From contig JADGHC010000001.1 in assembly GCA_019689655.1 (NCBI GenBank), forward strand, positions 1 through 58,790: a stretch of 58,790 nt of DNA. Direction: 5' to 3'. Below, piece after piece: positions 22,405 through 56,849 of the stretch (positions within the stretch are counted from its first letter, which is position 1; each line of letters opens with the position of its first letter). The notes beneath the pieces are model-generated. The model saw only the letters and a list, made by a program, of their open reading frames with translations, did no database searches and had not been told where the DNA came from. Source of the stretch: Microbispora sp. (lineage in GTDB: Bacteria; Actinomycetota; Actinomycetes; Streptosporangiales; Streptosporangiaceae). The translations under genes and the position numbers were made by a program.

Positions 22405-22448
22405 CCCCGCCTTACTTGATAAAGTACCTTACATTGTAAAGGGCGGCG
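22405..22448. other. Motif copy A: imperfect inverted repeat with 11-6-11 layout (candidate recombination site or TetR operator)
   Basis: CCCCGCC TTACTTGATAA AGTACC TTACATTGTAA AGGGCGGCG. Confidence 0.55.
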
Positions 22449-22555
22449 CACCCTGCGGTACGGCGCCCCGCGGGAACCGCGTACGCTACCGATTGCGACG
22501 CGAGTTCGATTGCGCGGAGCCCGATCGCGCGAGTTCGACACCGAAGGGGCTGACG

Positions 22556-23008
22556 ATGGCGTTTTTCCGTCCGCGGGTGAGCCGGGAGGCGGAGGTCCGC
22601 TACCACGCGGATCTGGAGATCCGGAAGAACTTCGGCGACGTGCTGGAGAAGGTCCGGGAGGCGCAGCGGCGGTTCCAGGAGGCGAAGGCGGCGGGCGCGC
22701 CGCTCCCCGAGCTCCGTGAGGCGGCCCTGGGCCTCGACGCCGCGCTGACCGAGGCGCTGCGCGCGGCCGAGGCGGGACAGCGCGCCACGTTCGGCGTGAA
22801 GGCCTACGACAACAGGATCGCCCGGCGCAAGGCCAAGGCCACCCCCGAGGGCGCGCTGTGGACCCACGAGGTGAACCGCCTGCGCACGCTGCGCGAGGCG
22901 CACCGCCTCGGCGGCATCCCCCGGCTGCCCCGCGCCGGCAAGACGGGCGACCCCGCCCGCCTGACCCCGCGCGACGTGCGCAAGAGCCTGGCCGCCGCGA
23001 GCCACTAG
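22556..23008 (+). CDS. Hypothetical helical protein
   Basis: GC3-biased ORF with GAAGGGG RBS; divergent from TetR. Confidence 0.7.
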   Translation: MAFFRPRVSREAEVRYHADLEIRKNFGDVLEKVREAQRRFQEAKAAGAPLPELREAALGLDAALTEALRAAEAGQRATFGVKAYDNRIARRKAKATPEGALWTHEVNRLRTLREAHRLGGIPRLPRAGKTGDPARLTPRDVRKSLAAASH

Positions 23009-23161
23009 GCGACCGCCGGGCAGCCGGGCGGCGAACGCGAGCGGTGGGGCCGGCAGCGTATTCCACACCGAGCGGGATCGGCCGCGATCGTGGGGCGACC
23101 GCGCGTCGGCGACGGCCCGCCCGCTCCGCGGCGGCGGACGGCCCCCGGGCCCGGACCAGAC

Positions 23162-23205
23162 ATGCGTACGGCCCGCACCCCCGGAGGGACGCGGGCCGTA
23201 CGCGT
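23162..23205. terminator. Hairpin between convergent genes (bidirectional terminator)
   Basis: GCGTACGGCCCGC...GCGGGCCGTACGC stem. Confidence 0.7.
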
Positions 23206-23210
23206 GGCGA

Positions 23211-24566
23211 TCAGCTCGCCCAGTCGAGCAGCGGCCGGGTGTTGCTGGGGTGGCGCAGCTTGGACAGCGACTCCTTCTCGAGCTGGCGGATCCGCTCCCG
23301 GGTCAGGCCCAGGTGCTTGCCTATCTCGTCCAGCGTGTGCGGCTTGCCGTCGGCCAGGCCGAAGCGCAGGCTCATGATCTTGGCCTCTCGCGGCGACAGG
23401 TTGTTCAGCACGCCCTTGAGCTGCTCGGCCAGCAGCTGCCGGTCCACGACCTCCGAGGCCTCGGGGGAGTCGACGTCCTCGATGAGGTCGCCGATGCGGG
23501 TCTCGCCGTCCTCCCCGATGGTCGAGTCGAGGCTGATCGGCTGCCGGCTGGTGCGCAGCAGCTCCTCGATCTGGTCGGGGGTCTTGTCCAGCTCGACGGC
23601 CAGCTCCTCCGGCGTGGGCTCCCGGCCGAGCCGCTGGTGCATGTCGCGCTCGACGCGCGACAGCTTCGACAGCATCTCCAGCACGTGGACGGGCAGCCGG
23701 ATCGTCCGGGCCGAGTCGGCGAAGCCGCGCTGGATGGCCTGCCGGATCCACCACATGGCGTACGTCGAGAACTTGTAGCCCTTGGTGTAGTCGAACTTCT
23801 CCACCGCGCGGATCAGGCCGAGGTTGCCCTCCTGTACGACGTCCAGCAGGGACATGCCGCGGTCGGTGTACTTCTTCGCCACCGAGACGACCAGGCGGAG
23901 GTTGGCCTCCAGCATGTGGTCCTTGGCCCGCCTGCCGTCCTCGATGACCCACTCCAGGTCCTCGCGCACGTGCGGAGGCAGATCCTCGCCGTTCTCGAGC
24001 GCGGTCTCCAGCTTGTACTCGGCGTACAGCCCGGCCTCGATGCGCTTGGCCAGCTCCACTTCCTGGGCGGCGGTGAGCAGCGTGCGGCGGCCGATGGACT
24101 TCAGGTAGGTGTGCACCGAGTCGCCCATGACCGAGGAGGTGTCGTCGAGGTCGAGCGTCCCGCTTTCGTCCATATCGGCCTCGTCGGCCTGGAGCTCCTC
24201 GTCGTACGGCTCCTCGTCGGCGGGCTCGGCCTTCTTCCTCGCGGCGCTCTTGGCGGCCTGCGCGGCCCGGCGGGACTTGCGGGTCTTGGCGGGGGCGGGC
24301 GTCCCCGTCTCCGCGACCGCCTCCGCGGTCGTCCGCGTGCCCGGCTCGATCTCCATGCCGTCGTCGGCGGCCAGGTGCACGCCCGCCTCGGTGAGCTCGC
24401 GCAGGATCGAGCGGCCCTCGGCGGGGCTGACGCCGGCCTTCGCGAAGGCCGCGCGCAGCTCCGGCAGGGAAAGGCGACCCTGCGCACGGCCTCGCTTCAG
24501 CAGCTGGTCGAGCGTCGTCGGGGTCGCCTCGCGCTCGGGCGAGGCCGCCACGGCGGTCCGGGGCAT
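23211..24566 (-). CDS. RNA polymerase sigma70 factor, principal-like (group 2, Hrd-type)
   Basis: [38 protein letters not shown] and [10 protein letters not shown]. Confidence 0.92.
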
Positions 24567-24722
24567 GAGGACACCTCCTCCTTGCGGAGTTCGTGATTTT
24601 GACGCTTGCGATCGGGGCGCGGCGTCCGGCGGCTCGGCGCACCAGTATCAATAACGCTGTCGCGCCTGGTTTGTTCCCGCGCCCGGCGGGGGAGGTGTGA
24701 TGGTTTGGGCCCGGACCGGTCG

Positions 24723-25106
24723 TCAGTCGGGGACGATGGTGACGCTGACCTCGGGCATCGGCATGGGGCTCGCGCTCTTCATGCGCCCGGGCGTCCAGTA
24801 GCCCGACACCTGGTCCGGGTCGTCGGTGAGCATCTTGGAGAAGACGTCCGGGTCGATCTCCGGGCTGGACTGCGGGCCGGTGACCCCGCGCCGGTCGGCG
24901 TCGGCCGGGGCGACCCCCTTCGAACCGTCGCGGCTCGATCCGCCGTGGCCGGGCTCGGCGGTGGGGGAGCCGCCGGCCTTCGCGACGTCGTCCAAGCGTC
25001 CGGCGAAGGCGGCGGCCGTGACGGACGCCCCGCCCACGATGACGACGGCGACGAGCACGGCGGAGGCCATCATCTTGTGGGCCGGCGTGAGGCGGATCGG
25101 TTGCAT
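24723..25106 (-). CDS. Hypothetical secreted/membrane-anchored protein
   Basis: N-terminal hydrophobic segment; YWTPGRMKSA motif resembles actinobacterial protease propeptides. Confidence 0.55.
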   Translation of the reverse strand: MQPIRLTPAHKMMASAVLVAVVIVGGASVTAAAFAGRLDDVAKAGGSPTAEPGHGGSSRDGSKGVAPADADRRGVTGPQSSPEIDPDVFSKMLTDDPDQVSGYWTPGRMKSASPMPMPEVSVTIVPD

Positions 25107-25166
25107 GCGGCGTCCCCTTCCCCCGCTTGCGTTGCACGCGCGACGGTCATCCGCGGTTTCGGAGCC

Positions 25167-26309
25167 TCAGGTGCGGTTCTTCGGTTCCGGGTTTTTGAGT
25201 GTGACCATATCCGGTTTGCCGTTCGGCAGGAGCGGTATCTGGGGCACCACCTCGACGGCGCGTGGCGCGGCGTGGGCGGGCAGCCGCTCCTTCGCATGCG
25301 CCCGCAGCTCGCCGAGCGTGACCTCGGCGCCGTCCCGGGGGACCACGACGGCGGTCACGATCTCGCCCCACTCGGGGTCGGGCCTGCCCACCACCACGAC
25401 GTCGCGTACGGACGGGTGGCCGGCCAGGACCTCGGCGACCGCGCCGGCCACGACCTTCTCGCCGCCGGTGTTGATCACGTCGTCGGCCCGGCCGAGCACG
25501 GTGAGCCGGCCGTCCTCCATCGAGCCCAGGTCGGAGGTGACGAACCAGCCGCCCTCGAAGGGGTGTTCCTCGCGCAGGCGGTAGCCGGAAAACAGCACCG
25601 GGCCGCAGATCCGCACCCGCCCGTCGTCGCCGATCTTTACCTCGACGCCGTCCAGCGGCACGCCGTCGTACACGCACCCGCCGCTCGTCTCGCTCATGCC
25701 GTACGTGGTGACGATCCTGGCCCCGGCGGCGCGGGCCTCGGCCAGCAGGCTCGCGGGCGCGGCGGCCCCGCCGAGCAGGATGGCGCGGAACGCCCCGAGG
25801 TCCGCCCCCGCGTCGAGCATGCGCCGCAGCTGTGTGGGGACGAGCGACACGTACCCCGCCCCGCTCGCGGCGACCCGCTCCGGCGAGAAGCCGGCATGGA
25901 TGATCGGCTCGGTGCCGCACAGCAGCGCCCGGATGAGGACCTGCGCGCCCGAGATATGCGACGGCGGCAGGCAGCACAGCCAGCGGTCGCCCTCACGGGC
26001 GCCCAGCCTGGCCAGCGAGGCGCGGGCCGAGGCGAGCAGCGCCCCGGCCGGCAGCTCCACGCCCTTGGGGGTCCCGGTGGAGCCGGACGTCGCGATGATC
26101 AGCGCGGCGTCGGAAGGCACGCCGTCCGGCTCGCGCCGTACGCCGTCGGGGGTGACGACGTGGGTGGGCCGCAGCGCGGCGAGCGTGGCCTCGAGCGCGG
26201 GCCGCGGGAGGCCGGGCGACAGCGGCAGCACGGTGGGCCCGTCGCCGGTCAGGGCCTGCCGTACGGCCTCGGACAGGGCGGGCCCCGGAGGCAGGACGAG
26301 GGCGTGCAC
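25167..26309 (-). CDS. menE: O-succinylbenzoate-CoA ligase
   Basis: [32 protein letters not shown] and NGK motifs; divergent from menB; start approximate. Confidence 0.85.
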
Positions 26310-26418
26310 GGGGCGCTGTCCCGGGCGATGTCTGGCAGGGCTGAACACGGTCGTAAGGTTAGTCCCGGCGTGTCGCCCCCGAGGCGGCCGCCCGGTTGGT
26401 GACGACGAAGGAGTGAGT

Positions 26419-27249
26419 GTGTCGAGCGGGGTCGACTGGCAGCGGTCGGGCGAGTACGAGGACATCATCTACGAGACCGCGGAGGGAATGGCGAAGATCA
26501 CGATCAACCGCCCCGAGCGGCACAACGCCTTCCGCCCCACGACCCTGTTCGAGCTCCGGGATGCCTTCTACCGGGCGCAGGAGGACACCGAGGTAGGGGT
26601 GATCATCCTCACCGGCGCGGGGGACAAGGCGTTCTGCTCCGGCGGCGACCAGAAGATCCGCGGCGACGACGGCTACGTGGACGCCAAGACCCACGGCATC
26701 GGCCGGCTCAACGTCCTCGACCTGCAGGTGCAGATCCGCCGCTGCCCCAAGCCGGTCATCGCGATGGTGGCGGGCTACGCCATCGGCGGCGGCCACGTGC
26801 TGCACGTGTGCTGCGACCTGACGATCGCCGCGGACAACGCGAAGTTCGGCCAGACGGGCCCCAAGGTGGGCTCGTTCGACGGCGGGTACGGGTCCTGGCT
26901 GCTCGCCGAGACCGTGGGCCTGAAGCGGGCCCGCGAGATCTGGTACCTGTGCCGCCAGTACGACGCGCAGACCGCGCTCCAGTGGGGCCTGGTCAACGCG
27001 GTGGTGCCGCTGGAGCGCCTGGAGGAGGAGACCGTCCAGTGGGCCCGCGAGCTGCTGGAGAAGTCCCCGCTGGCGCTGCGCATGCTGAAGGGCGCGCTCA
27101 ACGCGGTGAGCGACGGCGCGGCCGGCATGCAGCAGTTCGCCGGCGACGCGACGATGCTCTACTACATGAGCGAGGAGGCCCAGGAGGGCCGCGACGCGTT
27201 CAAGGAGAAGCGCAAGCCGGACTTCTCGAAGTTCCCGCGCCGCCCGTAG
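26419..27249 (+). CDS. menB: 1,4-dihydroxy-2-naphthoyl-CoA synthase
   Basis: [27 protein letters not shown] and EGRDAF motifs. Confidence 0.95.
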
Positions 27250-27366
27250 GGGCCGCGGGATGACGGCGGCTTCTCGGCTTTGCCGTACGCTTGCGGCTGC
27301 GGGAATGGGAGGAGACGGGCGGTTGGCTGAGAACCGGGCGGACCGAGGCGTTGCGGAGGCGCGGCG

Positions 27367-29016
27367 GTGAACCCGGCGACCGCACTGTCAACCGTCCTGA
27401 TCGACGAACTGGTGCGCTGCGGGGTCACCGACGTGGTGCTCGCCCCGGGCTCGCGGTCCGCGCCGCTGGCGCTCGCCGCGCACGCCGAGTCGCGGCTGCG
27501 GCTGCACGTGCGCATCGACGAAAGGTCGGCCTCGTTCGTCGCGCTCGGCCTGGCCAAGCGGTCCGAGCGGCCGGTCGCCCTGATCTGCACCTCGGGCACG
27601 GCGGCGGCCAACTTCCACCCCGCCGTGATCGAGGCGTCGGAGTCGGGCGTGCCGCTGCTCCTGCTGACCGCCGACCGGCCGCCCGAGCTGCGCGGCACCG
27701 GGGCCAACCAGACGATCGACCAGATCAAGCTGTACGGCTCGGCCGTACGCTGGTTCGCGGAGATCGGCGTGCCGGAGGAACGGCCGGGCCAGGTGGCCTA
27801 CTGGCGGTCCCTGGTGTGCCGGGCCTTCCAGCGTGCCGCCGGCCCGCCGGACCCCGGTCCCGTCCACCTCAACGTGGCCTTCCGCGAGCCGCTGATTCCC
27901 GACGGCGACGAGACCTGGTGCGAGCCGCTGGACGGCGACGCCTCCGGCGCGTGGGTCCGGGCGCGGGTCGCGCCGCCCGCCGCGGCCCTGCACATCCCGC
28001 CGACCCGGCGCGGCGTGCTGGTCGTCGGCGACGGCGCCGCCAACGTGCGCAGGTACGTCGCCGCCGCCGGCATGGCGGGCTGGCCGGTGCTGTCGGAGCC
28101 CAGCGGCGGCGGCCGGTACGGCGACCACGCGATCTCGACCTACCACTTCCTGCTGAGCGACCAGGAGTGGGCCGACGCCCACCGGCCCGACGTCGTGGTC
28201 ACCCTCGGCCGCCCAGGGCTGTCGCGCCCGCTGCTGTCGTGGCTGCGCCGGGCCGAGGAGCACATCGTGGTGTCCCCCGACCTCACCCGGTGGCCCGACC
28301 CGACCCGATCGGCGACCCAGGTGGCCCAGGCCGTGGAGATCCCGATCGCCACGGGCGGCGACGCCTGGCTGCGCTCCTGGCGGCACGCCGAGCACCTGGC
28401 CCGCGCGGTGATCGACCAGGTGCTCGACTCCTCCGGGCTGACCGAGCCCCGGCTGGCCCGCGACCTCGCCGACGTGCTGCCCAACGGCTCGCTGCTGTTT
28501 TGCGGGTCGTCCATGCCGATCCGCGACCTCGACCAGGCCATGCGGCCCCGGCGGGGGCTGCGGCTGATGGCCAACCGGGGCGCCTCGGGCATCGACGGCC
28601 TGGTCTCCACCGCGGTCGGTGCCGCGCTGGCCCACAACGGCCCGGCGTACGCGCTGATCGGGGACCTCACCCTGCTGCACGACCAGAACGGCCTCATCCT
28701 GGGCCCGCGCGAGCCCCGGCCCGACCTGTGCCTGGTCGTGGTCAACAACGACGGCGGCGGGATCTTCTCGCTGCTGCCGCAGGCCGCGCTCGAGGAGCCG
28801 TTCGAGCGGGTCTTCGGCACCCCCCACGGAGTGGATCTCGGCTACCTGGCCGCCGCGAACGGCCTGCCGTACACGCTGGTCGAGGAGCCGGAGGGGCTGT
28901 CGAGGGCGATCAAGGGGGACGGCCTGCGGCTCGTGGAGGCGCGCACCGACCGGGTGAGCAACGCGGCCGTCCACGCCGCGATGCGCGAGGCCGTACGCGC
29001 GGCGATGCGCGACTGA
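27367..29016 (+). CDS. menD: SEPHCHC synthase
   Basis: PGSRSAPL, IDERSASF, TADRPPEL, ANRGASGIDG and NNDGGGIF. Confidence 0.95.
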   Translation: MNPATALSTVLIDELVRCGVTDVVLAPGSRSAPLALAAHAESRLRLHVRIDERSASFVALGLAKRSERPVALICTSGTAAANFHPAVIEASESGVPLLLLTADRPPELRGTGANQTIDQIKLYGSAVRWFAEIGVPEERPGQVAYWRSLVCRAFQRAAGPPDPGPVHLNVAFREPLIPDGDETWCEPLDGDASGAWVRARVAPPAAALHIPPTRRGVLVVGDGAANVRRYVAAAGMAGWPVLSEPSGGGRYGDHAISTYHFLLSDQEWADAHRPDVVVTLGRPGLSRPLLSWLRRAEEHIVVSPDLTRWPDPTRSATQVAQAVEIPIATGGDAWLRSWRHAEHLARAVIDQVLDSSGLTEPRLARDLADVLPNGSLLFCGSSMPIRDLDQAMRPRRGLRLMANRGASGIDGLVSTAVGAALAHNGPAYALIGDLTLLHDQNGLILGPREPRPDLCLVVVNNDGGGIFSLLPQAALEEPFERVFGTPHGVDLGYLAAANGLPYTLVEEPEGLSRAIKGDGLRLVEARTDRVSNAAVHAAMREAVRAAMRD

Positions 29017-29144
29017 TCGTCTTCGCGGCTGGGGCAAGGACACGCGGGTCCGTCCGGGGGCGGACCCGTCTTGGTCCTTCCGGCGGATGCCGCACCTCCG
29101 GGACGGCGGCAGAATGGGTGCCGGTTGCCGCGTGAAGGAGTGAG

Positions 29145-29786
29145 ATGCACGTCGACGAGTGGCTGCAGACCATCCCGTCCGTCTGGGTCTATGCGCTCGT
29201 GGGCGCCGTCATCGGGCTGGAGAGCCTCGGCATCCCGCTCCCGGGCGAGATCGTGCTGGTGAGCGCCGCGCTGCTGTCGTCCAAGGGGGTCGTGCACCCG
29301 GTGATCCTCGGGATCTGCGCGAGCGCCGGCGCCATCGTGGGGGACTCGATCGGCTACCTGATCGGCCGCAAGGGCGGGCGGCCGCTGTTCGACCGGCTGG
29401 GGCGGCGCTTCCCCAAGCACTTCGGCCCCGCGCACATCGCCAAGGCGGAGCAGGTGTTCAACCGCCACGGGATGTGGGCGGTGTTCTTCGGCCGGTTCAT
29501 CGCCCTGCTGCGCATCCTCGCCGGGCCGCTGGCCGGCGCCCTGCGCATGCCGTACTGGCGCTTCCTCATCGCCAACGTCCTCGGCGGCGCCGCGTGGGCC
29601 GGCGGGACCACGGCCGCGATCTACTACCTCGGCGTCGTGGCAGACAAGTGGCTGAAGGGCTTCTCCTGGGTGGGACTGGCGGCCGCCGTCCTGTTCGGCC
29701 TCGGCACCACGGTGTGGCTCAAGCGCAGGGCGGCCAAGGCGGCGGACAAGCAGGAGGTCGCCCCCGAGACCGTCGGCACCCCGTAA
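29145..29786 (+). CDS. DedA family membrane protein
   Basis: ESLGIPLPGE, GDSIGY and FFGRFIALLR motifs. Confidence 0.9.
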   Translation: MHVDEWLQTIPSVWVYALVGAVIGLESLGIPLPGEIVLVSAALLSSKGVVHPVILGICASAGAIVGDSIGYLIGRKGGRPLFDRLGRRFPKHFGPAHIAKAEQVFNRHGMWAVFFGRFIALLRILAGPLAGALRMPYWRFLIANVLGGAAWAGGTTAAIYYLGVVADKWLKGFSWVGLAAAVLFGLGTTVWLKRRAAKAADKQEVAPETVGTP

Positions 29787-29841
29787 CGCGGCGTCCGATT
29801 CCCGCCAGCCCCCGGGGCGGCCGGGAGGCCACGATGGGAGC

Positions 29842-30336
29842 ATGGCGTTCGAGATCAGGGCCATCGCGCCCGACGTGCTTGACCAGCTCAGGAAGACCGA
29901 CGACGCCGGGCGTGAGCCGCGCCGGATCGTCGACGAGGAGGGCGGCAGCCCGCTGCGCTGCTGCCTGCGCCGCTCCCGGCCCGGGGAGGCGCTCCTGCTC
30001 GCGGCCTACGCGCCGCTGCGCCGCTGGGCGCTGGAGACCGGTGCCGACCCCGGTGCGTACGACGAGGTCGGGCCGGTGTTCATCCACGAGGAGCCGTGCG
30101 GGGGACCCGGGCCCGGCTACCCCGCGGAGATGGGCGGCGACCGGAGGGTCTTCCGCGCCTACCACGCCGACGGCTCCATCCTGAACGGGTACCTCGTGGA
30201 GGCCCGGCAGTCGGCAGATCCCGCCGCGGCGTCGGTCCTGCTGGACACCCTGTTCGAGGATCCGGAGACGGCGGTGATCCACGTGCGGGCCGTGGAGTTC
30301 GGCTGCTTCCAGTTCGAGGTACGCCGCACTTCGTAA
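29842..30336 (+). CDS. DUF1203-like protein
   Basis: PLRCCLR, AYDEVGPVFIH and HVRAVEFGCF. Confidence 0.8.
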   Translation: MAFEIRAIAPDVLDQLRKTDDAGREPRRIVDEEGGSPLRCCLRRSRPGEALLLAAYAPLRRWALETGADPGAYDEVGPVFIHEEPCGGPGPGYPAEMGGDRRVFRAYHADGSILNGYLVEARQSADPAAASVLLDTLFEDPETAVIHVRAVEFGCFQFEVRRTS

Positions 30337-31491: not shown

Positions 31492-31504
31492 ACCGGGACT
31501 GACA

Positions 31505-31523
31505 TTACTTTGTAAAGGCGGCG
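31505..31523 (+). other. Motif copy B
   Basis: TTACTTTGTAAAGGCGGCG in the yigZ promoter region. Confidence 0.55.
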
Positions 31524-41338: not shown

Positions 41339-41358
41339 GAATCTACAATGTAAAGGCG
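41339..41358 (+). other. Motif copy C
   Basis: GAATCTACAATGTAAAGGCG, 19/20 identical to 56827-56846. Confidence 0.65.
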
Positions 41359-41489: not shown

Positions 41490-41690
41490 CCTGGGCGAGT
41501 GGGACCGGCGGATTCCGCCGATGGTGGCGGTTCTCACGCCGGCGGACGGGGGAGTGCGGGTGACCGGCCGCGCGAACGGCTGGACGGCATGGCGCAGCGG
41601 CTGGCCGGCCTCGGCGTGCCGTTCACCGTGGTCGGGCCGCCCGAACTACGGCAGGAGGTGCGGGCGCTCGCCCGCCGCCTGAATGAGTGG
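41490..41690 (+). pseudogene. C-terminal remnant of a YafY/WYL-domain regulator (frameshifted)
   Basis: RRIPPMVAVLTPADGGVRVTGR, then in another frame ERLDGMAQRLAGLGVPFTVVGPPELRQEVRALARRL; no HTH/WYL N-terminus. Confidence 0.6.
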
Positions 41691-41756
41691 GCCCGACCAG
41701 GCCGCCGAGGGCTGACGTGGCGTCCCGGTAAGGAGCGCCGGGTGGTACGGCTTTTG

Positions 41757-48145: not shown

Positions 48146-49768
48146 TCAGGACAGGGCCTTGAGGAAGCGCGCGGCGACCGGGGCGGCCACCTCGCCGCCC
48201 ATGCCGCCGCCCTCCACGACGACGGCGAAGGCCAGGTCGCCGCGGAAGCCCATGAACCAGGCGTGCGAGTCGAGTTTGGGGCCGGTGCCGAACTCGGCGG
48301 TCCCGGTCTTGCCCGCCGTACCCGCGGGCAGCCCGGCGGCGTGGGCGGTGCCCTTGGTCACGACCGCCCGCATCATCGACCGCAGGCCCTCGACGACCCC
48401 GTCGGGCAGCTTCTTGGGAGCGATCTTCTGCTTCATCGACGGCACCAGCGTGGGCGGCCGCCAGGAGCCGTCGGCCACCGCCGCGGCCACCGTCGCGATC
48501 ACCAGCGGGCTGGCGGTGATCCTGGCCTGCCCGAACGCCTCCGCGGCCAGTTCGGCGTCGCTGGTGGCCTTCGGCATGCTGCCGGGGGTCGCCGGGACGC
48601 CGATGCGCAGCGGCTGGTTGAAGCCCAGGTCCGTCGCCATGTCGTACAGCTTGCGCGCACCCAGCTTCTGCGCGGCGAGCGGGGCGAACGTGGTGTTGCA
48701 CGAATGGGCGTAGGAGTCGAGGAACGAGAGCGATCCGAACGCCTCGTGGTCGGAGTTGCGGATCTTCAGCCCGCCGACGGTCACCTCTTCCGGGCAGGTC
48801 ACCCGGCTCGACGGGGTCAGGCCCTCGGCCAGCAGCCCGGCCGCCGTGACGGTCTTGAACGTGGACCCCGGGGGATACCTGCCGTCCAGCGCGCGGTTGA
48901 AACCGCCCCTGTTGTTGACGACGGCGAGGATCTCGCCCGTCGAGGGTCTGATGGCGACGAGCGAGGCGGGTTTGTCCAGATCGCGCACCGCGTCGGCGGC
49001 GGCGTTCTGCACCTTGAGGTCGAGGCTGGTCCGCAGTTCCCTGCCGGGGGAGCCCTTGACGGTGTGCAGGGTCTTGCGGCCGTCGCCCACCACCTGGATC
49101 TCGGTCGTGGGGGTGCCCGCGAGCTGCTTCTGGAACGTCTCCTGCAGGCCGCCGCGCCCCACGGCGTCGCCTTTCTTATAGGCGCTGCCCAGCTTCTCGA
49201 CGTCCTTGGCCGTGGCCTTGTCGAGGTAGCCGACGAGCTGCTGCACCGAGCCGCCCACGTCGCCGCCGTCGATGCGGTCGCCGTTGGCGTCGGTGATCGG
49301 CGCCCGCTGCGGCCACGTCGTCTTCAGCGCCAGGTGGTTGGTCCCGTTCAGCGCCGGGTGCACCGCGGACGGCGACCAGTCGACCTTCCAGTAGTGGTCC
49401 TTGACCACCAGCGCGAGCGAGCCCTTGTAGGTCCAGTCGCCGACGTTCTTCACGGTCGCGGTGGCGGTGAAGGTGGCGGTCGCCCTGTCGTCCTTGGCCG
49501 CCCCGGCCCGTACGTCGCGGATGGCGACCTTCGCCACTCCGAGGTTCTTGGTGAGTTCGGCGTACGCGGCGTCGAAGCCGGGAGCGGGGGAGGCGAGCTC
49601 GGCCTTCATCGCGGCGAAGTCGCCCCGGGACCACGCGGCGGTGAAGCGTGCCGCCGTCTCCTGCGGCGTGCCGCGCGTGTGCAGCACGTAGTAGGCGCCG
49701 CCTGCCGCGGCCCCCGCCAGGACGACGGCCACCGCGGCCGAGATCGCGACAGTACGTCCTCGTGGCAC
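48146..49768 (-). CDS. Class B penicillin-binding protein with NTF2-like (MecA_N) domain
   Basis: N-terminal TM segment; STFK, SCN and KTG motifs. Confidence 0.9.
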   Translation of the reverse strand: MPRGRTVAISAAVAVVLAGAAAGGAYYVLHTRGTPQETAARFTAAWSRGDFAAMKAELASPAPGFDAAYAELTKNLGVAKVAIRDVRAGAAKDDRATATFTATATVKNVGDWTYKGSLALVVKDHYWKVDWSPSAVHPALNGTNHLALKTTWPQRAPITDANGDRIDGGDVGGSVQQLVGYLDKATAKDVEKLGSAYKKGDAVGRGGLQETFQKQLAGTPTTEIQVVGDGRKTLHTVKGSPGRELRTSLDLKVQNAAADAVRDLDKPASLVAIRPSTGEILAVVNNRGGFNRALDGRYPPGSTFKTVTAAGLLAEGLTPSSRVTCPEEVTVGGLKIRNSDHEAFGSLSFLDSYAHSCNTTFAPLAAQKLGARKLYDMATDLGFNQPLRIGVPATPGSMPKATSDAELAAEAFGQARITASPLVIATVAAAVADGSWRPPTLVPSMKQKIAPKKLPDGVVEGLRSMMRAVVTKGTAHAAGLPAGTAGKTGTAEFGTGPKLDSHAWFMGFRGDLAFAVVVEGGGMGGEVAAPVAARFLKALS

Positions 49769-49827
49769 GCGTACCCCCAATGACGGCCCTGTGGTCGGGA
49801 CCAGAGCCTAGCGGGGGGAGTCGTCGT

Positions 49828-50490
49828 TCACACTCCGGCTCCGCCGGCCTCCTTGACGCTGGCGCCGTACCGGGGGACGTACTCCTGGCCGGACAGACGC
49901 TGGATCGCGGCCATGATCTCGTCGGTCACCCGCCGCCGGTCCCGGGCGCTGCCCGGGTCGCCGGTGAAGGTCATCGGCTCGCCGAAGCGTACGCCGATGC
50001 GGTGCAGGCGGGGCACCGACGCACCGGGCGGCAGCACCTTCTCGGTGCCGAGCATGGCGACGGGCACGACCGGGGCGCCGGTGGTCAGCGTGAGCCAGGC
50101 CACGCCGACCTTCCCCCGGTACAGCCGGCCGTCGGGGGAGCGGGTGCCCTCGGGATAGATGCCGAACAGCTCGCCCGCCTTGAGCACCTCCACCGCGGCG
50201 TCGAGCATGGACTGGGCGGCGGCGACGTTCGCCCGGTCGATCTCCATGGCGCCCATCGCGCGCATCCACGCGGCCACGAGCCGGTTGCCGGTGAAGTACT
50301 CCTTCTTCGCCACGAACCGCACCATCCGCGGCACCACGGCCGGCATGAAGAACGAGTCGAGGACGGACAGGTGGTTGGACGCGAGGATCGCGGGCCCGTG
50401 CGCGGGAACGTGCTCGCGTCCCTCCGTCCGCGGCCGCCACAGCGCGTGCATGATGGGGACGCTGACGAACTTCAGGGCGGGGTAGAGCAC
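49828..50490 (-). CDS. 1-acyl-sn-glycerol-3-phosphate acyltransferase (PlsC family)
   Basis: NHLSVLD and YPEGTRS motifs. Confidence 0.9.
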   Translation of the reverse strand: MLYPALKFVSVPIMHALWRPRTEGREHVPAHGPAILASNHLSVLDSFFMPAVVPRMVRFVAKKEYFTGNRLVAAWMRAMGAMEIDRANVAAAQSMLDAAVEVLKAGELFGIYPEGTRSPDGRLYRGKVGVAWLTLTTGAPVVPVAMLGTEKVLPPGASVPRLHRIGVRFGEPMTFTGDPGSARDRRRVTDEIMAAIQRLSGQEYVPRYGASVKEAGGAGV

Positions 50491-50605
50491 GGCCTCTCCT
50501 TCTCCAGTCCGACGGACATACCCTAGGCCGACCAGACCCCCGTACAGGTGTATGACCCCTGCAACACACTCTCCTGTGTTTTGTACGGCTTCACCAACAC
50601 TTCGT

Positions 50606-50625
50606 TGTGCCTACTAGTATGTACA
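50606..50625. promoter_or_regulatory. TetR-type operator palindrome overlapping the tetR start
   Basis: TGTGCCTACTAGTATGTACA near-palindrome. Confidence 0.6.
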
Positions 50626-51185
50626 GCGTGAGCACGCAGGACCGCCTGATCGAGAGCACCCGGGAACTGCTGTGGGAGCGCGGCTACGTGGGAACCAGCC
50701 CGCGGGCGATCCAGCAGCGGGCGGGAGCCGGGCAAGGCAGCATGTACCACCACTTCTCCGGCAAGCACGACCTCGCGCTCGCCGCGATCTGCCGTACGGC
50801 GGAGGAGCTGCGCGCCGAGGTGGAGGAGATCCTGAGCGGCCCGGGCACGGCGCTCGAACGCGTGTCGGCCTACCTGCGGCGCGAGCGGGAGGTGCTGCGG
50901 GGCTGCCCCGTCGGCAGGCTCACCCAGGACCCCGAGATCGTGGCCGATCCGGCGCTGCGGCGGCCGGTGGAGGAGACGTTCACGTGGCTGCGCGCCCGGC
51001 TCGCGGCGGTGCTGGCCGAGGGGAGGGACCGGGGCGAGCTCTCCGCCGCCCTCGACCCCGGAACCACCGCCGCGACGATCACGGCGGCGCTGCAGGGCGG
51101 GTACGTCCTGGCCCGCGCGGCCGGCTCGCCCGAGCCGTTCCATGAGGCCGTCGACGGGATGCTCGCCCTGCTGTCCCGCGCCTGA
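50619..51185 (+). CDS. TetR/AcrR-family regulator
   Basis: GYVGTSPRAIQQRAGAGQGSMYHHF and GCPVG. Confidence 0.9.
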   Translation: MYSVSTQDRLIESTRELLWERGYVGTSPRAIQQRAGAGQGSMYHHFSGKHDLALAAICRTAEELRAEVEEILSGPGTALERVSAYLRREREVLRGCPVGRLTQDPEIVADPALRRPVEETFTWLRARLAAVLAEGRDRGELSAALDPGTTAATITAALQGGYVLARAAGSPEPFHEAVDGMLALLSRA

Positions 51186-51560
51186 CCCGCCGAGGGCGGA
51201 CCTGCCCGGCGGCCGGGCCTGGTGAAACCGCGGGAGGACGGTCGCCCGCAGGGCCCTTGCGTGACCGCGGGCGGCCGGGCCGGCGCCGCTCCCGAGGTGC
51301 CGGAAAGACGGCGCCCCGCGAGAGCGAGTCTCGCGGGGCGCCCACGTCGAGGGCCGATGTGGCGGTCGCCTCCTCGGCGAGAGGCACAACACGGCTCCAG
51401 CCGAACGGTATTCCGTGAAGGCGGTGATTGAGGCCCGGGGGACACAAACCACATCGGCCATGAACGACTTTAGCCGACTTCCACCTCTGCTTTCTCCCGC
51501 ACACCTCATCGGGGTCCGTCATCGGCGGCTCAAGCCCGCTTGCACTATCGTCGGCAGGTG

Positions 51561-52094
51561 ATGCGTTCGATCAAGACACAACGGCTTGTGCTGCGGCGCT
51601 GGCGCGAGGAGGACAAGGAGCCCTTCGCCGCGATGAACGCCGACCCGGTCGTCATGGAGCACTTCCCCGCCCCGCTCACCCGGGAGGAGAGCGACACGCT
51701 CGCCGAGCGCGCCGACGCCCTGTTCGACGAGCACGGGTTCGGCCTGTGGGCGGTCGAGGCGGACGGGGAGTTCATCGGCTTCACCGGGCTGTCGGTCCCG
51801 AGGTTCACCGCCCACTTCACGCCGTGCGTGGAAATCGGCTGGCGGCTCGCCCGCTCGGCCTGGGGGCGGGGGTACGCCACGGAGGCGGCGCGTGCGGCGC
51901 TGGAGGACGGGTTCGCCCGGGCCGGGCTGACCGAGGCGGTGTCGTTCACGGCGGTCACGAACGTCCGCTCCCAGGCGGTCATGCGGCGGCTCGGGATGAC
52001 CCGGGACCCCGCCGACGACTTCGACCACCCGGCGCTGCCCGAGGGACACCGGCTGCGCCGGCACGTCCTGTATCGGATCCGGCGGCGAGGATGA
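51561..52094 (+). CDS. GNAT N-acetyltransferase (RimJ/RimL type)
   Basis: TQRLVLRRW, EIGWRL..SAWGRGYATEAA and NVRSQAVMRRLG. Confidence 0.9.
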   Translation: MRSIKTQRLVLRRWREEDKEPFAAMNADPVVMEHFPAPLTREESDTLAERADALFDEHGFGLWAVEADGEFIGFTGLSVPRFTAHFTPCVEIGWRLARSAWGRGYATEAARAALEDGFARAGLTEAVSFTAVTNVRSQAVMRRLGMTRDPADDFDHPALPEGHRLRRHVLYRIRRRG

Positions 52095-52840
52095 GCGGCA
52101 TGCGACTGCTGGTGCTGGGCGGCACGACGTTCGTCGGGCGGTGGGTGGTCACGGCCGCCGTGGAGCGCGACTGGCACGTCACCACCTTCACCCGCGGGCG
52201 CGCCGGGTGGGCGCACCCCGACGCCGAGGCGGTGATCGGCGACCGCGCCGTGCTGGCCAGGGCCGGGCTGATCCTCGGACCGCATGAGAACGCGGGACGG
52301 CTGCCGCACTGGCTGCTGCGCGCGGCGCGAGGCGGGGAGATGCTCGCCCCCGGTCCCGCCGACCAGCCGTTCCGTTACGTCGACGTACGGGACCTCGCGG
52401 CCTGGATCCTCGACGCGGCCGAGGGCGGCGTGACGGGCCCGGTCAACCTGGTCAACCCGGAGGGGCACACCACGACCCGGAATCTGCTGGAGTCCGTGGT
52501 CGCCGTCACCGGGGGGCGCGCGGAGCTGGTCTGGGTCGATCCCGAGGCGATCGAGTCCGCGGGGATCGACCGGTGGGCGGAGCTGCCGGGATGGATACCG
52601 CCCGGTCCCGAGCGGGCCGGGCTCATCCGGACCGACGTCGGCCGGGCCCTCGCGACCGGCCTGCGGTGCCGTCCGGTGGTGGAGACCGTCGCCGACACCT
52701 GGGCGTGGCTGACCGGATCGGGCGGCATCCCCGCGTCCCCGCCCGGGATCGACCCCGCCAAGGAACGGGCCGTGATCGCCGCCTGGCGGCGATCGATCGA
52801 GACGTCCCCGCCGGACGCCGGGGCGCCACCGGCCTCGTGA
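52091..52840 (+). pseudogene. NAD-dependent epimerase/reductase with in-frame internal deletion
   Basis: LVLGGTTFVG Rossmann start joined at GDR directly to AVLARAGLILGP; central region with YxxxK absent. Confidence 0.7.
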
Positions 52841-53589
52841 CGGGGCTCGGAAACGCCGCGCTGCTGGCCGCCGCCGGAGTGCTCGCCGGGCTGGTCGGCA
52901 GCGCGGGCGGCATCACGTCCCTCATCTCCTATCCGGCCCTGCTCGCGGCGGGTCTTCCCTCACTCGCGGCGAACGTGGCCAACATCGTCGCGCTCGTCGC
53001 CTGCTGGCCCGGCTCGGCGCTGGCCTCGCGGCCGGAACTGCGCGGCCGGGGGCCGTGGCTGCGGCGATGGGTGCCGCTGGCGGCGCTGGGCGGGGCCGTC
53101 GGGGCGGCGTTGCTGCTGTGGACTCCGCCGGGTGTGTTCGACCGGGTCGTGCCGTTCCTCGTGGCCGCCGGTTCGCTCGCGCTGCTCGCGCAGCCCCGGC
53201 TCACCGCACAGCACGAGCGGCGTGGCTCGCCGGACGCCGTTCTCCCCCTCGGGCTGGCCGCCCTATCGGTCTACAACGGCTATTTCGGCGCGGGATCGGG
53301 GGTGATGATCCTCACGCTCCTCCTGGTGACCGCCGAGCCGCGGCTGCCCGCCGCCAACGCGTTGAAGAACATGCTGCTCGGCGCCGGCGTGCTGGTCTCC
53401 GCCGCCGGGTTCGCCCTCTTCTGGCCGGTGGACTGGGCCGCGGTCGTCCCCCTCGCGGCGGGCCTGTTCGCGGGGTCCACGCTGGGGCCCCGGGTCGCCC
53501 GGCGCCTTCCCGCCGGGCTGCTGCGCCGGCTGGCCGCCCTGATCGGCATCGTGCTGGCGGTCCGCCTGTGGTTCGCCCCGCAGGGATGA
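52837..53589 (+). CDS. TauE/SafE (sulfite exporter) family membrane protein
   Basis: AGGITSLISYPALL, YNGYFGAGSG and ANALKN. Confidence 0.85.
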   Translation: MTGLGNAALLAAAGVLAGLVGSAGGITSLISYPALLAAGLPSLAANVANIVALVACWPGSALASRPELRGRGPWLRRWVPLAALGGAVGAALLLWTPPGVFDRVVPFLVAAGSLALLAQPRLTAQHERRGSPDAVLPLGLAALSVYNGYFGAGSGVMILTLLLVTAEPRLPAANALKNMLLGAGVLVSAAGFALFWPVDWAAVVPLAAGLFAGSTLGPRVARRLPAGLLRRLAALIGIVLAVRLWFAPQG

Positions 53590-53629
53590 CCGCCCGGGCG
53601 GCCGATCGAGAAGCCGTGGCGCGGGATCC

Positions 53630-54385
53630 TCAGCTGGTGGCGCCCCAGGTGACGGACAGGCCGGTGGCGGCGCGTTCGGTGCGGATCTCCATCATGCTGC
53701 CGAGGACCGTGGCGTGGTCGTACACCACGGGCGTGGCGTCGAGCGTGTAGGTGATGCGGGTGCTGACGAGCACCGGGCTGCCCTGCGGCTCGTGAAGGTG
53801 ACGGGCGGCGGCGGAGTCGAGCAGGCCGGGCCGGACCACCTCGGACGCCCGGGCGACCACGACTCCGGCGTCGGCGAGGGCCGAGTAGAGGGTGACGACG
53901 GTGAAGTCGCGGTCGCGGATCGCGTCGGCCACCGGCCGGCGGACCCAGGACACCTGGTGCACGGCGGGACGCCCCCCGAACTCGCGGACCCGCTCCAGCC
54001 GCAGGGCGGTCTCGCCCGGAGGCAGCCGCAGCCGCGCGGCGACCCGGGCGGGAGCCCGGCGCATCGCCCGCCCGGTCACCACGGTACGCACGTCGTGGCC
54101 TTGCTTACGCAGGTCGTCGGCGAGACTGCGGAGCGAGTCGAGCTGGTACGCCAGGTGGGGCGGGGCGACGAACGTGCCCCTGCCGGGCTGCTGCACGATC
54201 AGCTTCTCATCGCTGAGCAGCCGCAACGCCTGGCGCAGCGTCATCAGGGTCACCCCGTAGGAGGCGCTCAGTTCCCGCTGCGGCGGCAGCGCTTCACCCG
54301 GGGCGTACTCTCCCGACCGGATCTTCGCGGCGAGGTCGGCGGCGATCGCGCGGTATCTCGCCTCGTGTCCGGCGTCGGGGGTCAT
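53630..54385 (-). CDS. GntR/HutC-family regulator (UTRA domain)
   Basis: YRAIAADL...LPPQREL...TLRQAL...GRGTFV plus UTRA-like C-terminus. Confidence 0.9.
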   Translation of the reverse strand: MTPDAGHEARYRAIAADLAAKIRSGEYAPGEALPPQRELSASYGVTLMTLRQALRLLSDEKLIVQQPGRGTFVAPPHLAYQLDSLRSLADDLRKQGHDVRTVVTGRAMRRAPARVAARLRLPPGETALRLERVREFGGRPAVHQVSWVRRPVADAIRDRDFTVVTLYSALADAGVVVARASEVVRPGLLDSAAARHLHEPQGSPVLVSTRITYTLDATPVVYDHATVLGSMMEIRTERAATGLSVTWGATS

Positions 54386-54783
54386 CGTGCTGGGTCACAC
54401 TCCTGGTCGAGGGCCTGCCGCAGGGACGTGAGGAAGGCCCGAAGGTCGTCCGGTCCCGCCCCGTCGAGCACCCGCCGCATGATCGCGGCGCCGACCACCA
54501 CGCCGTCGGCGTGCCGGTGGGCCTCGCGTGCCCGGTCCGGGGTGGAAACGCCAAATCCTAACAAGATCGGCCGGTCGGTGACACGCCTGAGCCGCTCGGC
54601 GAGCTGCGCCGCCGACGCGGCGAGGGCGGCCCGCTCGCCGGTGGTGCCCATCAGCGACACCGCGTAGACGAAGCCACGGCTGCGGCGCGCGATCTCCGCC
54701 AGCCGCGGCTGCGGGGTCGCCGGCGAGGCCAGCAGGGCCGGCTCGATCCCGGCCGCGCCCGCGGCCGTGATGGAACTCGTCAC
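54382..54783 (-). pseudogene. trpA: Tryptophan synthase alpha chain lacking its N-terminal half
   Basis: SRGFVYAVSLMGTTG, GFGVS and ADGVVVGAAI present; only 133 aa. Confidence 0.8.
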
Positions 54784-55427
54784 AGCATCTCCTTCAGGGT
54801 CGAGACGTCCTTGTCGCCCCGGCCGGACGACGTCATGAGCACGGTCGATCCCGCGGGCAGGTCGCCGCGGTCCGCCGCGCGGATCACCCAGGCGAGGGCG
54901 TGCGCCGATTCGAGCGCGGGGACGATGCCTTCGGTGCGCGCCAGCCGTACCGCCGCGCGGACCGCCTCGTCGTCAGTGACCGTGACGTAGCGGGCCCGGC
55001 CCAGGTCGCGCAGGTGGGCGTGCTCCGGGCCGACCCCCGGGTAGTCGAGCCCGGCGGCGATGGAGTGCGCCTGGATGATCTGCCCGTCGCCGTCCTGCAG
55101 GAACAGCGAGCGGGAGCCGTGCAGGACGCCGAGCCGGCCGCGGGACGCCCCGGCGCCGCCCTCCGCCTCGACGCCGACCGACAGCCGGTGGGCCGGGGTC
55201 AGCGGGGTCGGCCGCCCGGCGTGCACCGCCAGCAGCCGTGCCAGGGCGCCGCGGAACCCCGGGTCCGCCCAGGCGTCCCGGAACGCCTCGTCCACCTGGC
55301 GGCACGCCTCCGCCAGGGACTCCGGCGCGTACCGTCCGCCGTATTCGCCGAACCGGCCCCGCACTCCGGGGTCGCCCATCGTCCCGCCCGGCGCGACCGG
55401 CGCGCGCGATGGCAGCAGATCTCGCAC
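54780..55427 (-). pseudogene. trpB: Tryptophan synthase beta chain with in-frame deletion of the PLP-binding core
   Basis: FGEYGGRYAPE and GRPTPL joined to VGVEA..SIAAGLDYPGVGPEH..PALESAHA..SGRGDKD; KREDLxHTGxHK absent. Confidence 0.85.
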
Positions 55428-55442
55428 GCCATGCCTCCTATC

Positions 55443-55472
55443 GTTCTATAACTCTTCGGAGAGTTCTATAAC
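55443..55472. promoter_or_regulatory. Direct repeat of a near-palindrome upstream of trpB (candidate GntR operator)
   Basis: GTTCTATAAC at 55443 and 55463. Confidence 0.6.
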
Positions 55473-55609
55473 AGCGAGTCTGACATGGGCGGAGCGGGCG
55501 CGCCACCCCTCGGTGCCGGGATTTCCGCGCCGCCCCGGTGCGGCCCGGCTGGGACGGGACCGCCCGCCCGTCGCCGGAGCCCGCCGGAGACGGGGCATAC
55601 GCTGATGGG

Positions 55610-55795
55610 GTGCGACGCCGGAAGAAGGCGTACCTGGCGATGATGGGCACGTGCCTCACGTTGTTCGTGCTGGCCGGCGCCGTCGTCCGGATGTTCTCCA
55701 CCACCGCGGCGATCGTGATGGTCGTGGTGGCACTGGTGATCCCGCCGTTCGCCGTGATCGTCGCCAACCGCCGCGACGACGATCGGGACGGGTGA
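55610..55795 (+). CDS. DUF3099-like small membrane protein
   Basis: RRKKAYLAMMGTCL...IPPFAVIVAN; TACGCT -10 box 6 nt before GTG. Confidence 0.8.
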   Translation: MRRRKKAYLAMMGTCLTLFVLAGAVVRMFSTTAAIVMVVVALVIPPFAVIVANRRDDDRDG

Positions 55796-55855
55796 CGCCT
55801 GCGCGGGCCGCCCGTACGGCGAGTTGACGGGCGGGCGCCCGGTGACGGGTGGTGC

Positions 55856-56809
55856 TCAGCGGGCGGCGCCGGGGACGTGGAGCCGGTCCACGGCCTCGCG
55901 GCGGCGGCGCTCGGGCCGCCGATCGTAACGGGCGGTGGTGGCGGGGGAGGCGTGGCCGACCAGCGCCTGGGCGGTGGCCAGGTCGACCCCGGCGTCGAGC
56001 AGCTCGCCGATGAACGTGCGGCGGAAGTCGTGCGGCGTACGGCGGGCGGTGCCGGCCGCGGCCAGCCGCCGGGAGACGATGTCGGCGACCGCCTGTCCGG
56101 TCATGTGCGCCATCCGCAGCCGTCCGCCCTTGTTGACAGGGCAGAACAACGGCCCGGGCGCCCGCCCGCGTACGGCGAGCCACAGGTCGAGGCGTTCGAC
56201 GGCCTGCGTGGTCAGGTAGACCAGACGCTCTTTGTCGCCCTTTCCGCGCACCCGGAGCGAGCGCGCGTGGGGGTCGAAGTCGGCCAGGGTGAGCCCGGCG
56301 ATCTCGGCCCGGCGGCAGCCGGTGGAGTAGAGAGCGGCCAGCAGGGCGCCGTCGCGGCGGCCGGCGGGGGAGGGGTCGTCGTCGCACACCTTCAGCACGG
56401 CCGCGAGCGCCTCGGGCTCGACGTGCCGCCCGGCGGGGACGCGGGTGTGCTTGTAGGCGGGCAGATCGGCCGCGCGCTGGTAGTCCTCGCCGCTCATCAG
56501 GCCGAGCCGCCACGCCTCCTTCAGCACGCGGCGCAGGGCGACCAGGTGCTTGTTGACGGTGGCGGGCGACCAGCCCTGCTCCCGCATCAGGGTGCGCAGC
56601 CGGGTCGTGTGCTCGTAGCGGAGCAGTTCCCAGGGCTGGCCGGCACCGGTCGCCTCCGGGTCGCCGGTGATGAGGCGGGCGATGCGGTCGAGGCAACCCT
56701 TCATCGTGCGCTTGGACTCGGGGCTCTGCAGCGCGTCGAGATACACCTGGTAGGGGTCACGGCCGGGCCGCGCGGGGGCGTTCCGCTCGGGGACCGCGGG
56801 GACGTTCAT
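55856..56809 (-). CDS. Tyrosine recombinase/integrase (XerC/D or Cre-like fold)
   Basis: Core-binding ATVNKHLVALR; catalytic R (GCRRAE), K (GKGDK), HxxR (PHDFRR), GH and Y (TARYDR). Confidence 0.92.
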   Translation of the reverse strand: MNVPAVPERNAPARPGRDPYQVYLDALQSPESKRTMKGCLDRIARLITGDPEATGAGQPWELLRYEHTTRLRTLMREQGWSPATVNKHLVALRRVLKEAWRLGLMSGEDYQRAADLPAYKHTRVPAGRHVEPEALAAVLKVCDDDPSPAGRRDGALLAALYSTGCRRAEIAGLTLADFDPHARSLRVRGKGDKERLVYLTTQAVERLDLWLAVRGRAPGPLFCPVNKGGRLRMAHMTGQAVADIVSRRLAAAGTARRTPHDFRRTFIGELLDAGVDLATAQALVGHASPATTARYDRRPERRRREAVDRLHVPGAAR

Positions 56810-56826
56810 CGCGTCGATCCTACTAT

Positions 56827-56849
56827 GAATCTACAGTGTAAAGGCGGTG
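56827..56849 (+). other. Motif copy D, in the recombinase promoter
   Basis: GAATCTACAGTGTAAAGGCGGTG, 17 bp upstream of the recombinase ATG. Confidence 0.65.

Follow-up and report, generated by a model that had tools for sequence, protein, structure and literature searches.

The window, by which is meant the whole stretch of 58,790 nucleotides analysed, carries four copies of a short directional motif (sites A to D), together with a tetR gene and a gene for a tyrosine recombinase. The features are as follows; G002 is a relative used for comparison.

21820..22395, minus strand: Tet-class TetR gene (Pfam TetR_N and TetR_C_1), encoding the proposed site-binding terminator protein
22411..22424, plus strand: decayed tandem copy of site A, recognised by sequence
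22426..22443, plus strand: site A, in the tetR promoter, a CTTAC-N3-GTAAAGG variant (exact match, matrix scan)
22556..23008, plus strand: conserved hypothetical gene, divergent from tetR and beside it in most loci examined
31502..31519, plus strand: site B, upstream of a YigZ/UPF0029 gene (exact match, matrix scan; position kept in G002)
41340..41357, plus strand: site C, of consensus strength (exact match, matrix scan; position kept in G002)
55856..56809, minus strand: intact tyrosine recombinase gene adjoining site D (PF00589, catalytic motifs present)
56828..56845, plus strand: site D, of consensus strength (exact match, matrix scan; a G002 counterpart exists)

An exact scan of the window for TGTAAAGG returned four matches, all on the plus strand (22435, 31511, 41349 and 56837). 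Shuffled versions of the window contained a mean of 0.09 exact matches, and none of 100 shuffles contained four; when up to three mismatches were allowed, the same four copies were recovered (shuffled mean, 0.52). All four sites are intergenic, and a weight-matrix scan of the window revealed no fifth copy at 9 bits or above. The initial annotation had described four intergenic copies on one strand, 9.1, 9.8 and 15.5 kb apart, with C and D identical at 19 of 20 bases and with no other copy on either strand, all of which was borne out; its estimate was ∼0.3 chance matches per window, the shuffled value being lower. It had also placed site B beside a TetR/SnoaL module, and B is indeed preceded by a SnoaL gene that itself adjoins a second TetR. 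The gene remnants it had seen beside C and D proved real for C, which adjoins a frameshifted WCX-domain remnant; that beyond D is unconfirmed, since the ORF there (56888-57268) has no Pfam match. The output of a generic repeat finder was overwhelmed by chance repeats of high GC content.

The motif is a pseudo-palindrome, TAC-N3-GTA, set between two unlike flanks. The initial annotation had overlooked this core, which may resemble E. coli Ter and an arm of loxP, and had also overlooked the tandem pair formed at site A with the decayed copy at 22411-22424; G002 has a single intact site at this position.

The window copies make up one end of an array on the scale of the chromosome, with the consensus RATCTACWWYGTAAAGG. 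In the whole assembly (6.34 Mb in 808 contigs, 93% complete), 23 matrix matches of at least 15 bits were obtained, four of them in the contig containing the window, compared with three in a reversed control. On 33 chromosomes that are complete or nearly so, 369 of the 375 copies converge on the terminus from both arms, only six being misoriented, and the arms are separated by a site-free gap of 34-649 kb (median 247 kb). The dif site lies inside this gap in all 25 genomes having a clean dif match, and a matrix scan of G002, G117, G088, G126 and G073 found no site of 12 bits or more within it. In 27 of 31 chromosomes the centre of the gap is at a fractional distance of 0.45-0.53 from dnaA; in the other four it is far off the antipode (0.32, 0.39, 0.67 and 0.80), where assembly error is possible. 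The GC-skew switch is within the gap in G002 and also in G003, in which the sampled skew turns at 4.4-4.5 Mb, away from the dnaA antipode near 5.0 Mb; the skew of G117 and G073 is noisy and gives no usable switch at fine scale. Just under half of the sites (24 of 53) are found within 150 kb of a gap edge, and sites reach 1-2 Mb out along each arm. The G002 counterpart of site D, at 4,114,240, is the innermost site of its arm, the dif of that chromosome being at 4,279,375.

Genomes carry a median of 13 one-armed copies, and the array is present in 145 of 146 Streptosporangiaceae (GTDB family) genomes, while in 363 other Actinomycetes the motif is at background level. In the window genome the asymmetric form occurs 14 times and the two symmetric forms once and not at all; in five genomes the left-left symmetric form is at background (8 versus 12). 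Of 63 intergenic sites resolved with rough gene calls, 18 have convergent and 10 have divergent neighbours; convergent regions account for about 17% of intergenic bases and divergent ones for about 29%. The genes beside the sites differ from genus to genus. Judged from the scarcity of symmetric forms, the polarity of the sites is selected. The earlier claims that the motif is directional and unlike a plain operator, and that it belongs to terminus organisation, both hold.

The TetR encoded at 21820-22395 has a single-copy ortholog in 145 of the 146 family genomes, and the one family genome without it is also the one without the array. No ortholog-level TetR was found in the 363 other Actinomycetes (best match 3.4e-38, compared with 7.4e-51 or better in the family). 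The motif therefore tracks the TetR and not the recombinase (ortholog in 52 of 146 genomes), an outcome that the initial annotation had named as counting against its own recombinase reading. Any family-specific gene, including that at 22556-23008, would co-occur in the same way, however, because the co-occurrence is close to a single evolutionary event. In 27 of 29 loci tetR is preceded by an array site; L194 (one genus locus) has no promoter site, and in L199 the site is degenerate. The recognition-helix region of the protein is nearly invariant and its C-terminal domain varies in length; 28 orthologs formed one clade in a quick tree. The predicted model (pLDDT 91.9) has the Tet-class fold, the nearest solved structures being those of BioQ, ActR and TetR(D). 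A promoter scan that requires a -35 box gave no match at tetR, and the true start of the gene may be a few codons downstream and leaderless. In the window genome, TAC-N3-GTA was present upstream of five of nine Tet-class paralogs (0.005 expected per 250 bp); upstream of the paralog with the highest score, the symmetric CTTAC-N3-GTAAG occurs twice. As for the product of the divergent gene 22556-23008, it has no Pfam or NCBIfam match, its Atlas matches are unnamed, and its predicted complex with a TetR dimer scored 0.01, which counts neither for nor against an interaction.

The array has the layout of a fork trap: convergent non-palindromic sites, a site-free zone holding dif, and a promoter site at the gene of the proposed binder. 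We consider it fairly likely that the TetR binds these polar sites and makes of them a one-way barrier, probably a replication fork trap around dif; binding is suggested by the sequence relationships described above, and orientation-dependent fork arrest by analogy with known traps. A TetR dimer would read the TAC-N3-GTA core and would repress its own gene through the promoter site. The unequal flanks, ATC on one side and AAGG on the other, would make the TetR-DNA complex asymmetric, so that a fork would pass at the ATCTAC end and stop at the AAAGG end; forks would enter the gap but could not leave it. Since the window copies are on the plus strand, the terminus would lie past base 58,790 of the window, as in G002. 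The operator of an ordinary Tet-class repressor would have been made asymmetric once, at the base of the family. With slightly less assurance, we lean towards such a repressor having become a polar terminator that single time, as a third origin of fork traps, plasmid-borrowed and possibly ligand-switchable. To our knowledge there is no TetR-fold polar barrier, and none appeared in the literature searched.

Among known systems, Tus/Ter of E. coli and other Enterobacterales shares with the array several non-palindromic sites per arm aimed at dif, a similar gap width and a site just ahead of the binder's start codon (excerpts of PMC6549158, PMC8707476 and PMC10331603), and it too has paired sites near a plasmid origin, as these partial sources describe it. 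According to the same excerpts, E. coli terA and terC lie at 1.34 and 1.61 Mb (PMC10331603 Table 2), Tus traps span 18-564 kb, and TerB is 11 bp before tus (PMC8707476). Tus is a monomer, however, while the proposed binder would be a TetR-fold dimer on a 17-bp pseudo-palindrome, and Tus (PF05472) was found in none of five genomes (E. coli control positive). RTP/Ter of Bacillus subtilis is, in the portions of the literature available, closer in mechanism, with a symmetric dimer, a polar block at an asymmetric site and autoregulation from a promoter site; both tus and rtp are described there as autoregulated through a promoter ter site. RTP nevertheless uses two adjacent half-sites, four monomers and a two-dimer A/B layout, whereas the array site is a single 17 bp, with no second conserved half-site seen in its flanks; RTP (PF02334) exceeded the cut-off in none of the five genomes, three giving weak matches below it (B. 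subtilis control positive). Partial sources also show that XerD/XDS and MatP/matS each have one protein with numerous sites around the terminus, and that SlmA/SBS and RefZ/RBM are TetR-family proteins in chromosome-position roles. The array differs from the former pair in that its binder is apparently a TetR and its sites show strict polarity and leave the centre empty, and from the latter in that the window TetR is of the Tet class and its polar sites flank the terminus. BioQ-type Tet-class proteins share the fold and the 5-N3-5 operator layout (TGAAC-N3-GTTCA for BioQ; excerpt of PMC3398298), although Tet-class repressors have symmetric operators before their targets, in contrast with the ∼13 asymmetric, replichore-oriented sites per genome found here.

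From sequence, the motor that would be stopped is ambiguous, as the replisome, SMC and FtsK all run from origin to terminus. The same TetR and sites might instead act in one direction only on SMC condensin or FtsK, stopping or unloading them, which we regard as unlikely yet the strongest of the alternatives. The polarity fits this reading because those motors also travel from origin to terminus; an SMC-like gene is present in the window genome, the sites extend 1-2 Mb out on each arm, and dedicated terminus unloaders exist, MatP/matS and XerD/XDS being those named in the available part of PMC11894783. It is the fork traps, however, that are matched by a gap of 100-600 kb with dif inside, often near one edge, and by the binder-promoter site and the both-way sites at rep-like genes. 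In addition, matS is palindromic, and KOPS number in the hundreds and continue as far as dif. Even with SMC or FtsK as the target, a TetR barrier of this polar kind would be new.

A considerably less probable reading gives the TetR a role like that of SlmA or RefZ, with its sites positioning septa relative to the terminus. Both of those are TetR-family proteins with fixed chromosomal sites, and SlmA sites avoid ter (excerpt of PMC6657595), just as the array leaves the terminus centre site-free; in the same excerpt, however, the RefZ motifs come close to being palindromes, and the SlmA sites are spread over the remainder of the chromosome. The strict replichore polarity and the scarcity of symmetric forms would be left unexplained, and the window TetR scores on neither the RefZ nor the SlmA model. 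Somewhat more improbable again is that the sites are dif-half-like XerD sites, as Bacillus XDS, and their link with the TetR a coincidence. The 3′ half of the site, TGTAAAG, is similar to the XerD arm of dif in the window genome, TTATGTCAAGT; GTCAAG variants are found near site clusters, and genomes in which neither XerC nor dif was found retain an XerD-level gene. Against this, the TTATGT of that XerD arm was present in none of 95 oriented matches, three g34 genomes have at least two Xer-level genes each and 0, 0 and 1 exact copies, and neither the ATCTAC half nor the tetR promoter site is accounted for. The initial annotation's own alternative, a TetR regulon with the sites as its ordinary operators, is very improbable: sites A and D are in promoters and the core is a Tet-class operator, but orientation follows the replichore (369/375), sites favour convergent over divergent intergenic regions (18 and 10 of 63) and neighbouring genes change between genera.

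Least probable of all is its main proposal, that these are binding or crossover sites of recombinase 55856-56809, which is contradicted for the array as a whole by 93 array-bearing genomes without an ortholog detectable with this query (92 if a 40% match in G038 is counted), by polarity and dif-in-gap in such genomes, and by the failure of 80 recombinase loci to show any conserved two-armed site or inverted repeat close to the gene. An array site does lie upstream of the recombinase in 48 of these 80 loci (0 of 20 in Nonomuraea), its catalytic motifs are intact, and genomes with the gene have a median of 17 copies compared with 11 in those without, although these genomes are related and not independent. 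Genes between direct copies keep their order in the relative, with no sign of excision. The expectation that synteny breakpoints would map to the motif failed: the window and G002 align in 27 blocks, with about 26 breaks, and sites A-D are near some block ends while most breaks have no site. Nor do Xer/dif or single-recombinase dif systems, in which each chromosome has a single two-armed site with a spacer of 6-8 bp, provide a fit, given one-armed copies, a recombinase restricted to 52 of 146 genomes and a separate, canonical dif, which the window genome has elsewhere together with two Xer-level genes. The recombinase scored below the XerC, XerD and XerS cut-offs, and it is a neighbour or passenger near the inner edge of the array, not its partner, possibly repressed through site D. 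A 55% homolog is found on a Thermobispora plasmid record.

The excerpted reviews describe only two unrelated fork traps, confined to four clades (PMC6549158, PMC10331603). The TetR-based fork trap proposed here would be the third, independently evolved in bacteria after Tus and RTP, and the first with a TetR fold. If this is true, fork traps evolve repeatedly and have gone unnoticed because tus and rtp are what searches are built on; the third would be retained across a large family of filamentous actinomycetes, in 145 of 146 genomes. Motifs around dif that are low in copy number and replichore-polar would provide a general search recipe. The system would also be a new one in which to study how a one-way barrier can arise from a symmetric dimer and why fork traps are retained by cells, and so small a site-plus-protein barrier is a possible tool.

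Sites facing both ways were found at three of five loci with rep-like genes, the other two having none; in two of them the sites were 219 and 197 bp past the same homology point. By analogy, this arrangement recalls terRL/terRR of R1, and a weak HTH match suggests a rep function for these genes. Short-query BLAST of plasmids gave no useful match, and a site on the N. gerenzanensis plasmid reached 13.5 bits only. In viral contigs, the scan gave at least 120 listed stretches among about 340, which were set aside, AT-rich phage DNA being expected to contain such matches by chance. A paired-site scan of metagenomes gave 17 loci, 13 of which, being below 55% GC, are not from Streptosporangiaceae. 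Among 301 family genomes, a close inverted pair of sites occurs in one, the window genome alone.

The four copies of the motif described in the initial annotation (sites A–D, spanning 22426..56845) were found where it had placed them, all on the forward strand, against a mean of 0.09 in shuffled sequence; sites C and D are, as it claimed, identical at 19 of 20 bases, and a weight matrix scan found no fifth copy in the window. Two window genes border these sites:

21820..22395, reverse strand, tetR, with site A in its promoter
55856..56809, reverse strand, tyrosine recombinase, beside site D

The assembly around the window is fragmented (6.34 Mb), the window being its largest contig. The recombinase and TetR of the source genome are closest to Microbispora, and the 4.03–4.12 Mb region of G002, the complete chromosome of a close relative, is colinear with the window. 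Site A is duplicated at 22411-22443 (a decayed and an intact copy, 2 bp apart), its G002 counterpart being a single intact copy. G002 bears an additional weak site at 4,058,976, just past a dedA-like gene, that is absent from the window (after 29786) and thus indicates site turnover between close species. A frameshifted remnant of a WCX domain (the C-terminal domain of WYL regulators) lies beside site C (41499-41702). The segment 53630-55507 contains a GntR gene with pieces of trpA and trpB that look truncated, all of which are found inverted ∼80 kb further on in G002.

The sites belong to a real, family-wide and polar array at the chromosome terminus, with the consensus RATCTACWWYGTAAAGG, obtained from the flanks of 59 sites. 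In a sample of 146 genomes spanning 34 genera of the GTDB family, 145 carry 4–31 copies (median 13) versus a control mean of 0.53, one mismatch being allowed. The 363 genomes of other Actinomycetes searched contained 0–5 copies each, the same as their controls; two outgroup genomes, G011 and G346, are flagged as unpublished and are not the sole basis of any conclusion. Three genomes of g34, a genus without the array, had 0, 0 and 1 exact copies. With a relaxed pattern, all forward copies in four complete chromosomes lie before one point and all reverse copies after it, apart from two copies close to the G004 origin. Of 375 copies in 33 chromosomes, complete or nearly so, 369 are directed at a single gap, a count that pools three patterns of differing strictness and includes some rounded chromosome lengths. 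The orientation switch was fitted genome by genome; dnaA was located, as was dif, the Xer recombination site, which provided an independent anchor. The count excludes matches on the second replicons G001:C3 and G110:C2, as well as G034 (contig break at the gap), G142 (no copies) and G090 (50 contigs). Secondary, weaker dif-like hits in G003, G032, G067, G074, G147 and G153 were likewise set aside.

The gap measures 34–649 kb (median 247 kb), and in 27 of 31 genomes its centre falls at 0.45–0.53 of the distance from dnaA. All 25 genomes with a clean dif hit have dif inside the gap, skewed to one edge (mean 0.15 of the gap versus 0.25 by chance, the kin not being independent). No site of at least 12 bits was found within the gap by matrix scan in G002, G117, G088, G073 or G126. 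In G003 and G002 the turn in GC skew falls within the gap; in G117 and G073 the skew is noise. Both gap and dif are well away from the dnaA antipode in G073 (0.80), G147 (0.67), G113 (0.32) and G037 (0.39), reflecting either strong replichore imbalance or assembly error.

Eight of the 33 chromosomes yielded no clean dif. In three of these a symmetric two-armed site lies inside the gap by another Xer-like gene, likely representing a single-recombinase replacement of XerCD/dif:

Candidate replacement two-armed sites (L419-L430), core GGATAA-TATGTA-TTATCC, upstream of an Xer-like gene
G126:C1:2772843
G073:C1:5490421
G052:C1:7020863

In the partial sequence scanned for G052, two weaker sites fall within the gap defined by the exact pattern, each with the orientation expected relative to the two-armed site. 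Genera g3, g9, g11, g13, g14, g15 and g27, plus G003, have a single high-scoring XerC/XerD-level gene, XerD-like; their tested complete chromosomes yielded no canonical dif, despite which the polar array is retained.

TetR is the likely binder of the array. A single-query search detected it in 79 of 146 family genomes, and a profile from 22 orthologs found one copy in 144. The G090 TetR is real but split by a long linker; G142, the sole family genome without TetR, is also the sole one without the array. In the co-occurrence check proposed in the initial annotation, the motif thus tracks TetR and not the recombinase. No ortholog-level TetR was found in the 363 outside genomes (eight candidates scored per genome). 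In a quick tree, 28 orthologs group into one clade apart from 30 paralogs (SH-aLRT 99). Of 29 tetR loci, 27 have a site upstream of the gene; its orientation is constant, and it is mostly 10–50 bp from the start. In the source genome, TAC-N3-GTA occurs upstream of five of nine Tet-class paralogs (0.005 expected), the best-scoring one having two upstream copies of the symmetric CTTAC-N3-GTAAG. The predicted model has a Tet-class fold, nearest to TetR(D), BioQ and ActR; the predicted BioQ site (PMC3398298) has the 5-N3-5 layout of the array site core. The window TetR very probably binds the array sites. In one ortholog branch (L195-L199, L254) a long acidic linker joins the DNA-binding and C-terminal domains. 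Divergent from tetR, 22556-23008 encodes a helical, basic protein of 130–150 aa, conserved across the family, that could be a partner of TetR.

Sites facing dif from both arms around a gap define a one-way gate for something that moves towards the terminus from the origin. The layout is that of published fork traps, in which the terminator gene also has a ter site in its promoter (PMC8707476, PMC10331603 and PMC6549158); by this reasoning, the ATCTAC end would be permissive and the AAAGG end blocking. By each available sequence test the array resembles a fork trap, one assignable to neither known family; searches of five genomes detected neither Tus nor RTP. On balance, the array is probably a replication fork trap with TetR as its barrier. 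The open-licence PMC and bioRxiv literature (subscription papers being outside the scope) returned no description of the array or of a TetR-fold terminator. A barrier for SMC or FtsK, which both travel in the same direction as forks, is a less likely reading. The case for XerD sites is weak since TTATGT occurs in 0 of 95 matches, although XerD is retained in genomes that yielded neither XerC nor dif.

The initial annotation took the sites for binding or crossover sites of the recombinase. This was not supported: one query found an ortholog in just 52 of 146 family genomes, and therefore none in 93 array-bearing genomes, and site polarity also holds in genomes without it. The recombinase gene has a site upstream in 48 of 80 loci (0 of 20 in Nonomuraea), at varying distance from the leaderless −10 box, and no two-armed target was found near it. 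Its enzyme looks intact and has a 55% homolog in a plasmid record from Thermobispora; it may have been domesticated from a mobile element and be repressed by TetR through site D. A TetR regulon of ordinary operators, the annotation's alternative, is very unlikely: orientation is set by chromosome arm and not by adjacent genes, the symmetric forms that would suit a repressor better occur at background level, and some sites lie between convergent genes (by rough gene calls, 89 sites comprise 9 coding, 17 unresolved and 63 intergenic, the latter 35 tandem, 18 convergent and 10 divergent).

Sites on second replicons lend modest support to the fork-trap reading. In the source genome, an HTH gene of plasmid type, with homologs on Nonomuraea and Thermobispora plasmids, has at its end two sites facing each other 9 bp apart (G000:C204:3574-3616, L262); the R1 plasmid has such a pair near its origin (PMC10331603). 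This was the only genome of 301 in the family with a close inverted pair. On plasmid p1 of N. gerenzanensis a weak two-faced site occurs at an almost identical offset, and G001:C3 has one within a rep-like frame; two further rep-like loci had no site. The 358-kb second replicon G110:C2 carries two consensus sites (L264, L265), reverse at 121 kb and forward at 219 kb, pointing away from the replicon middle, as though its origin were central.
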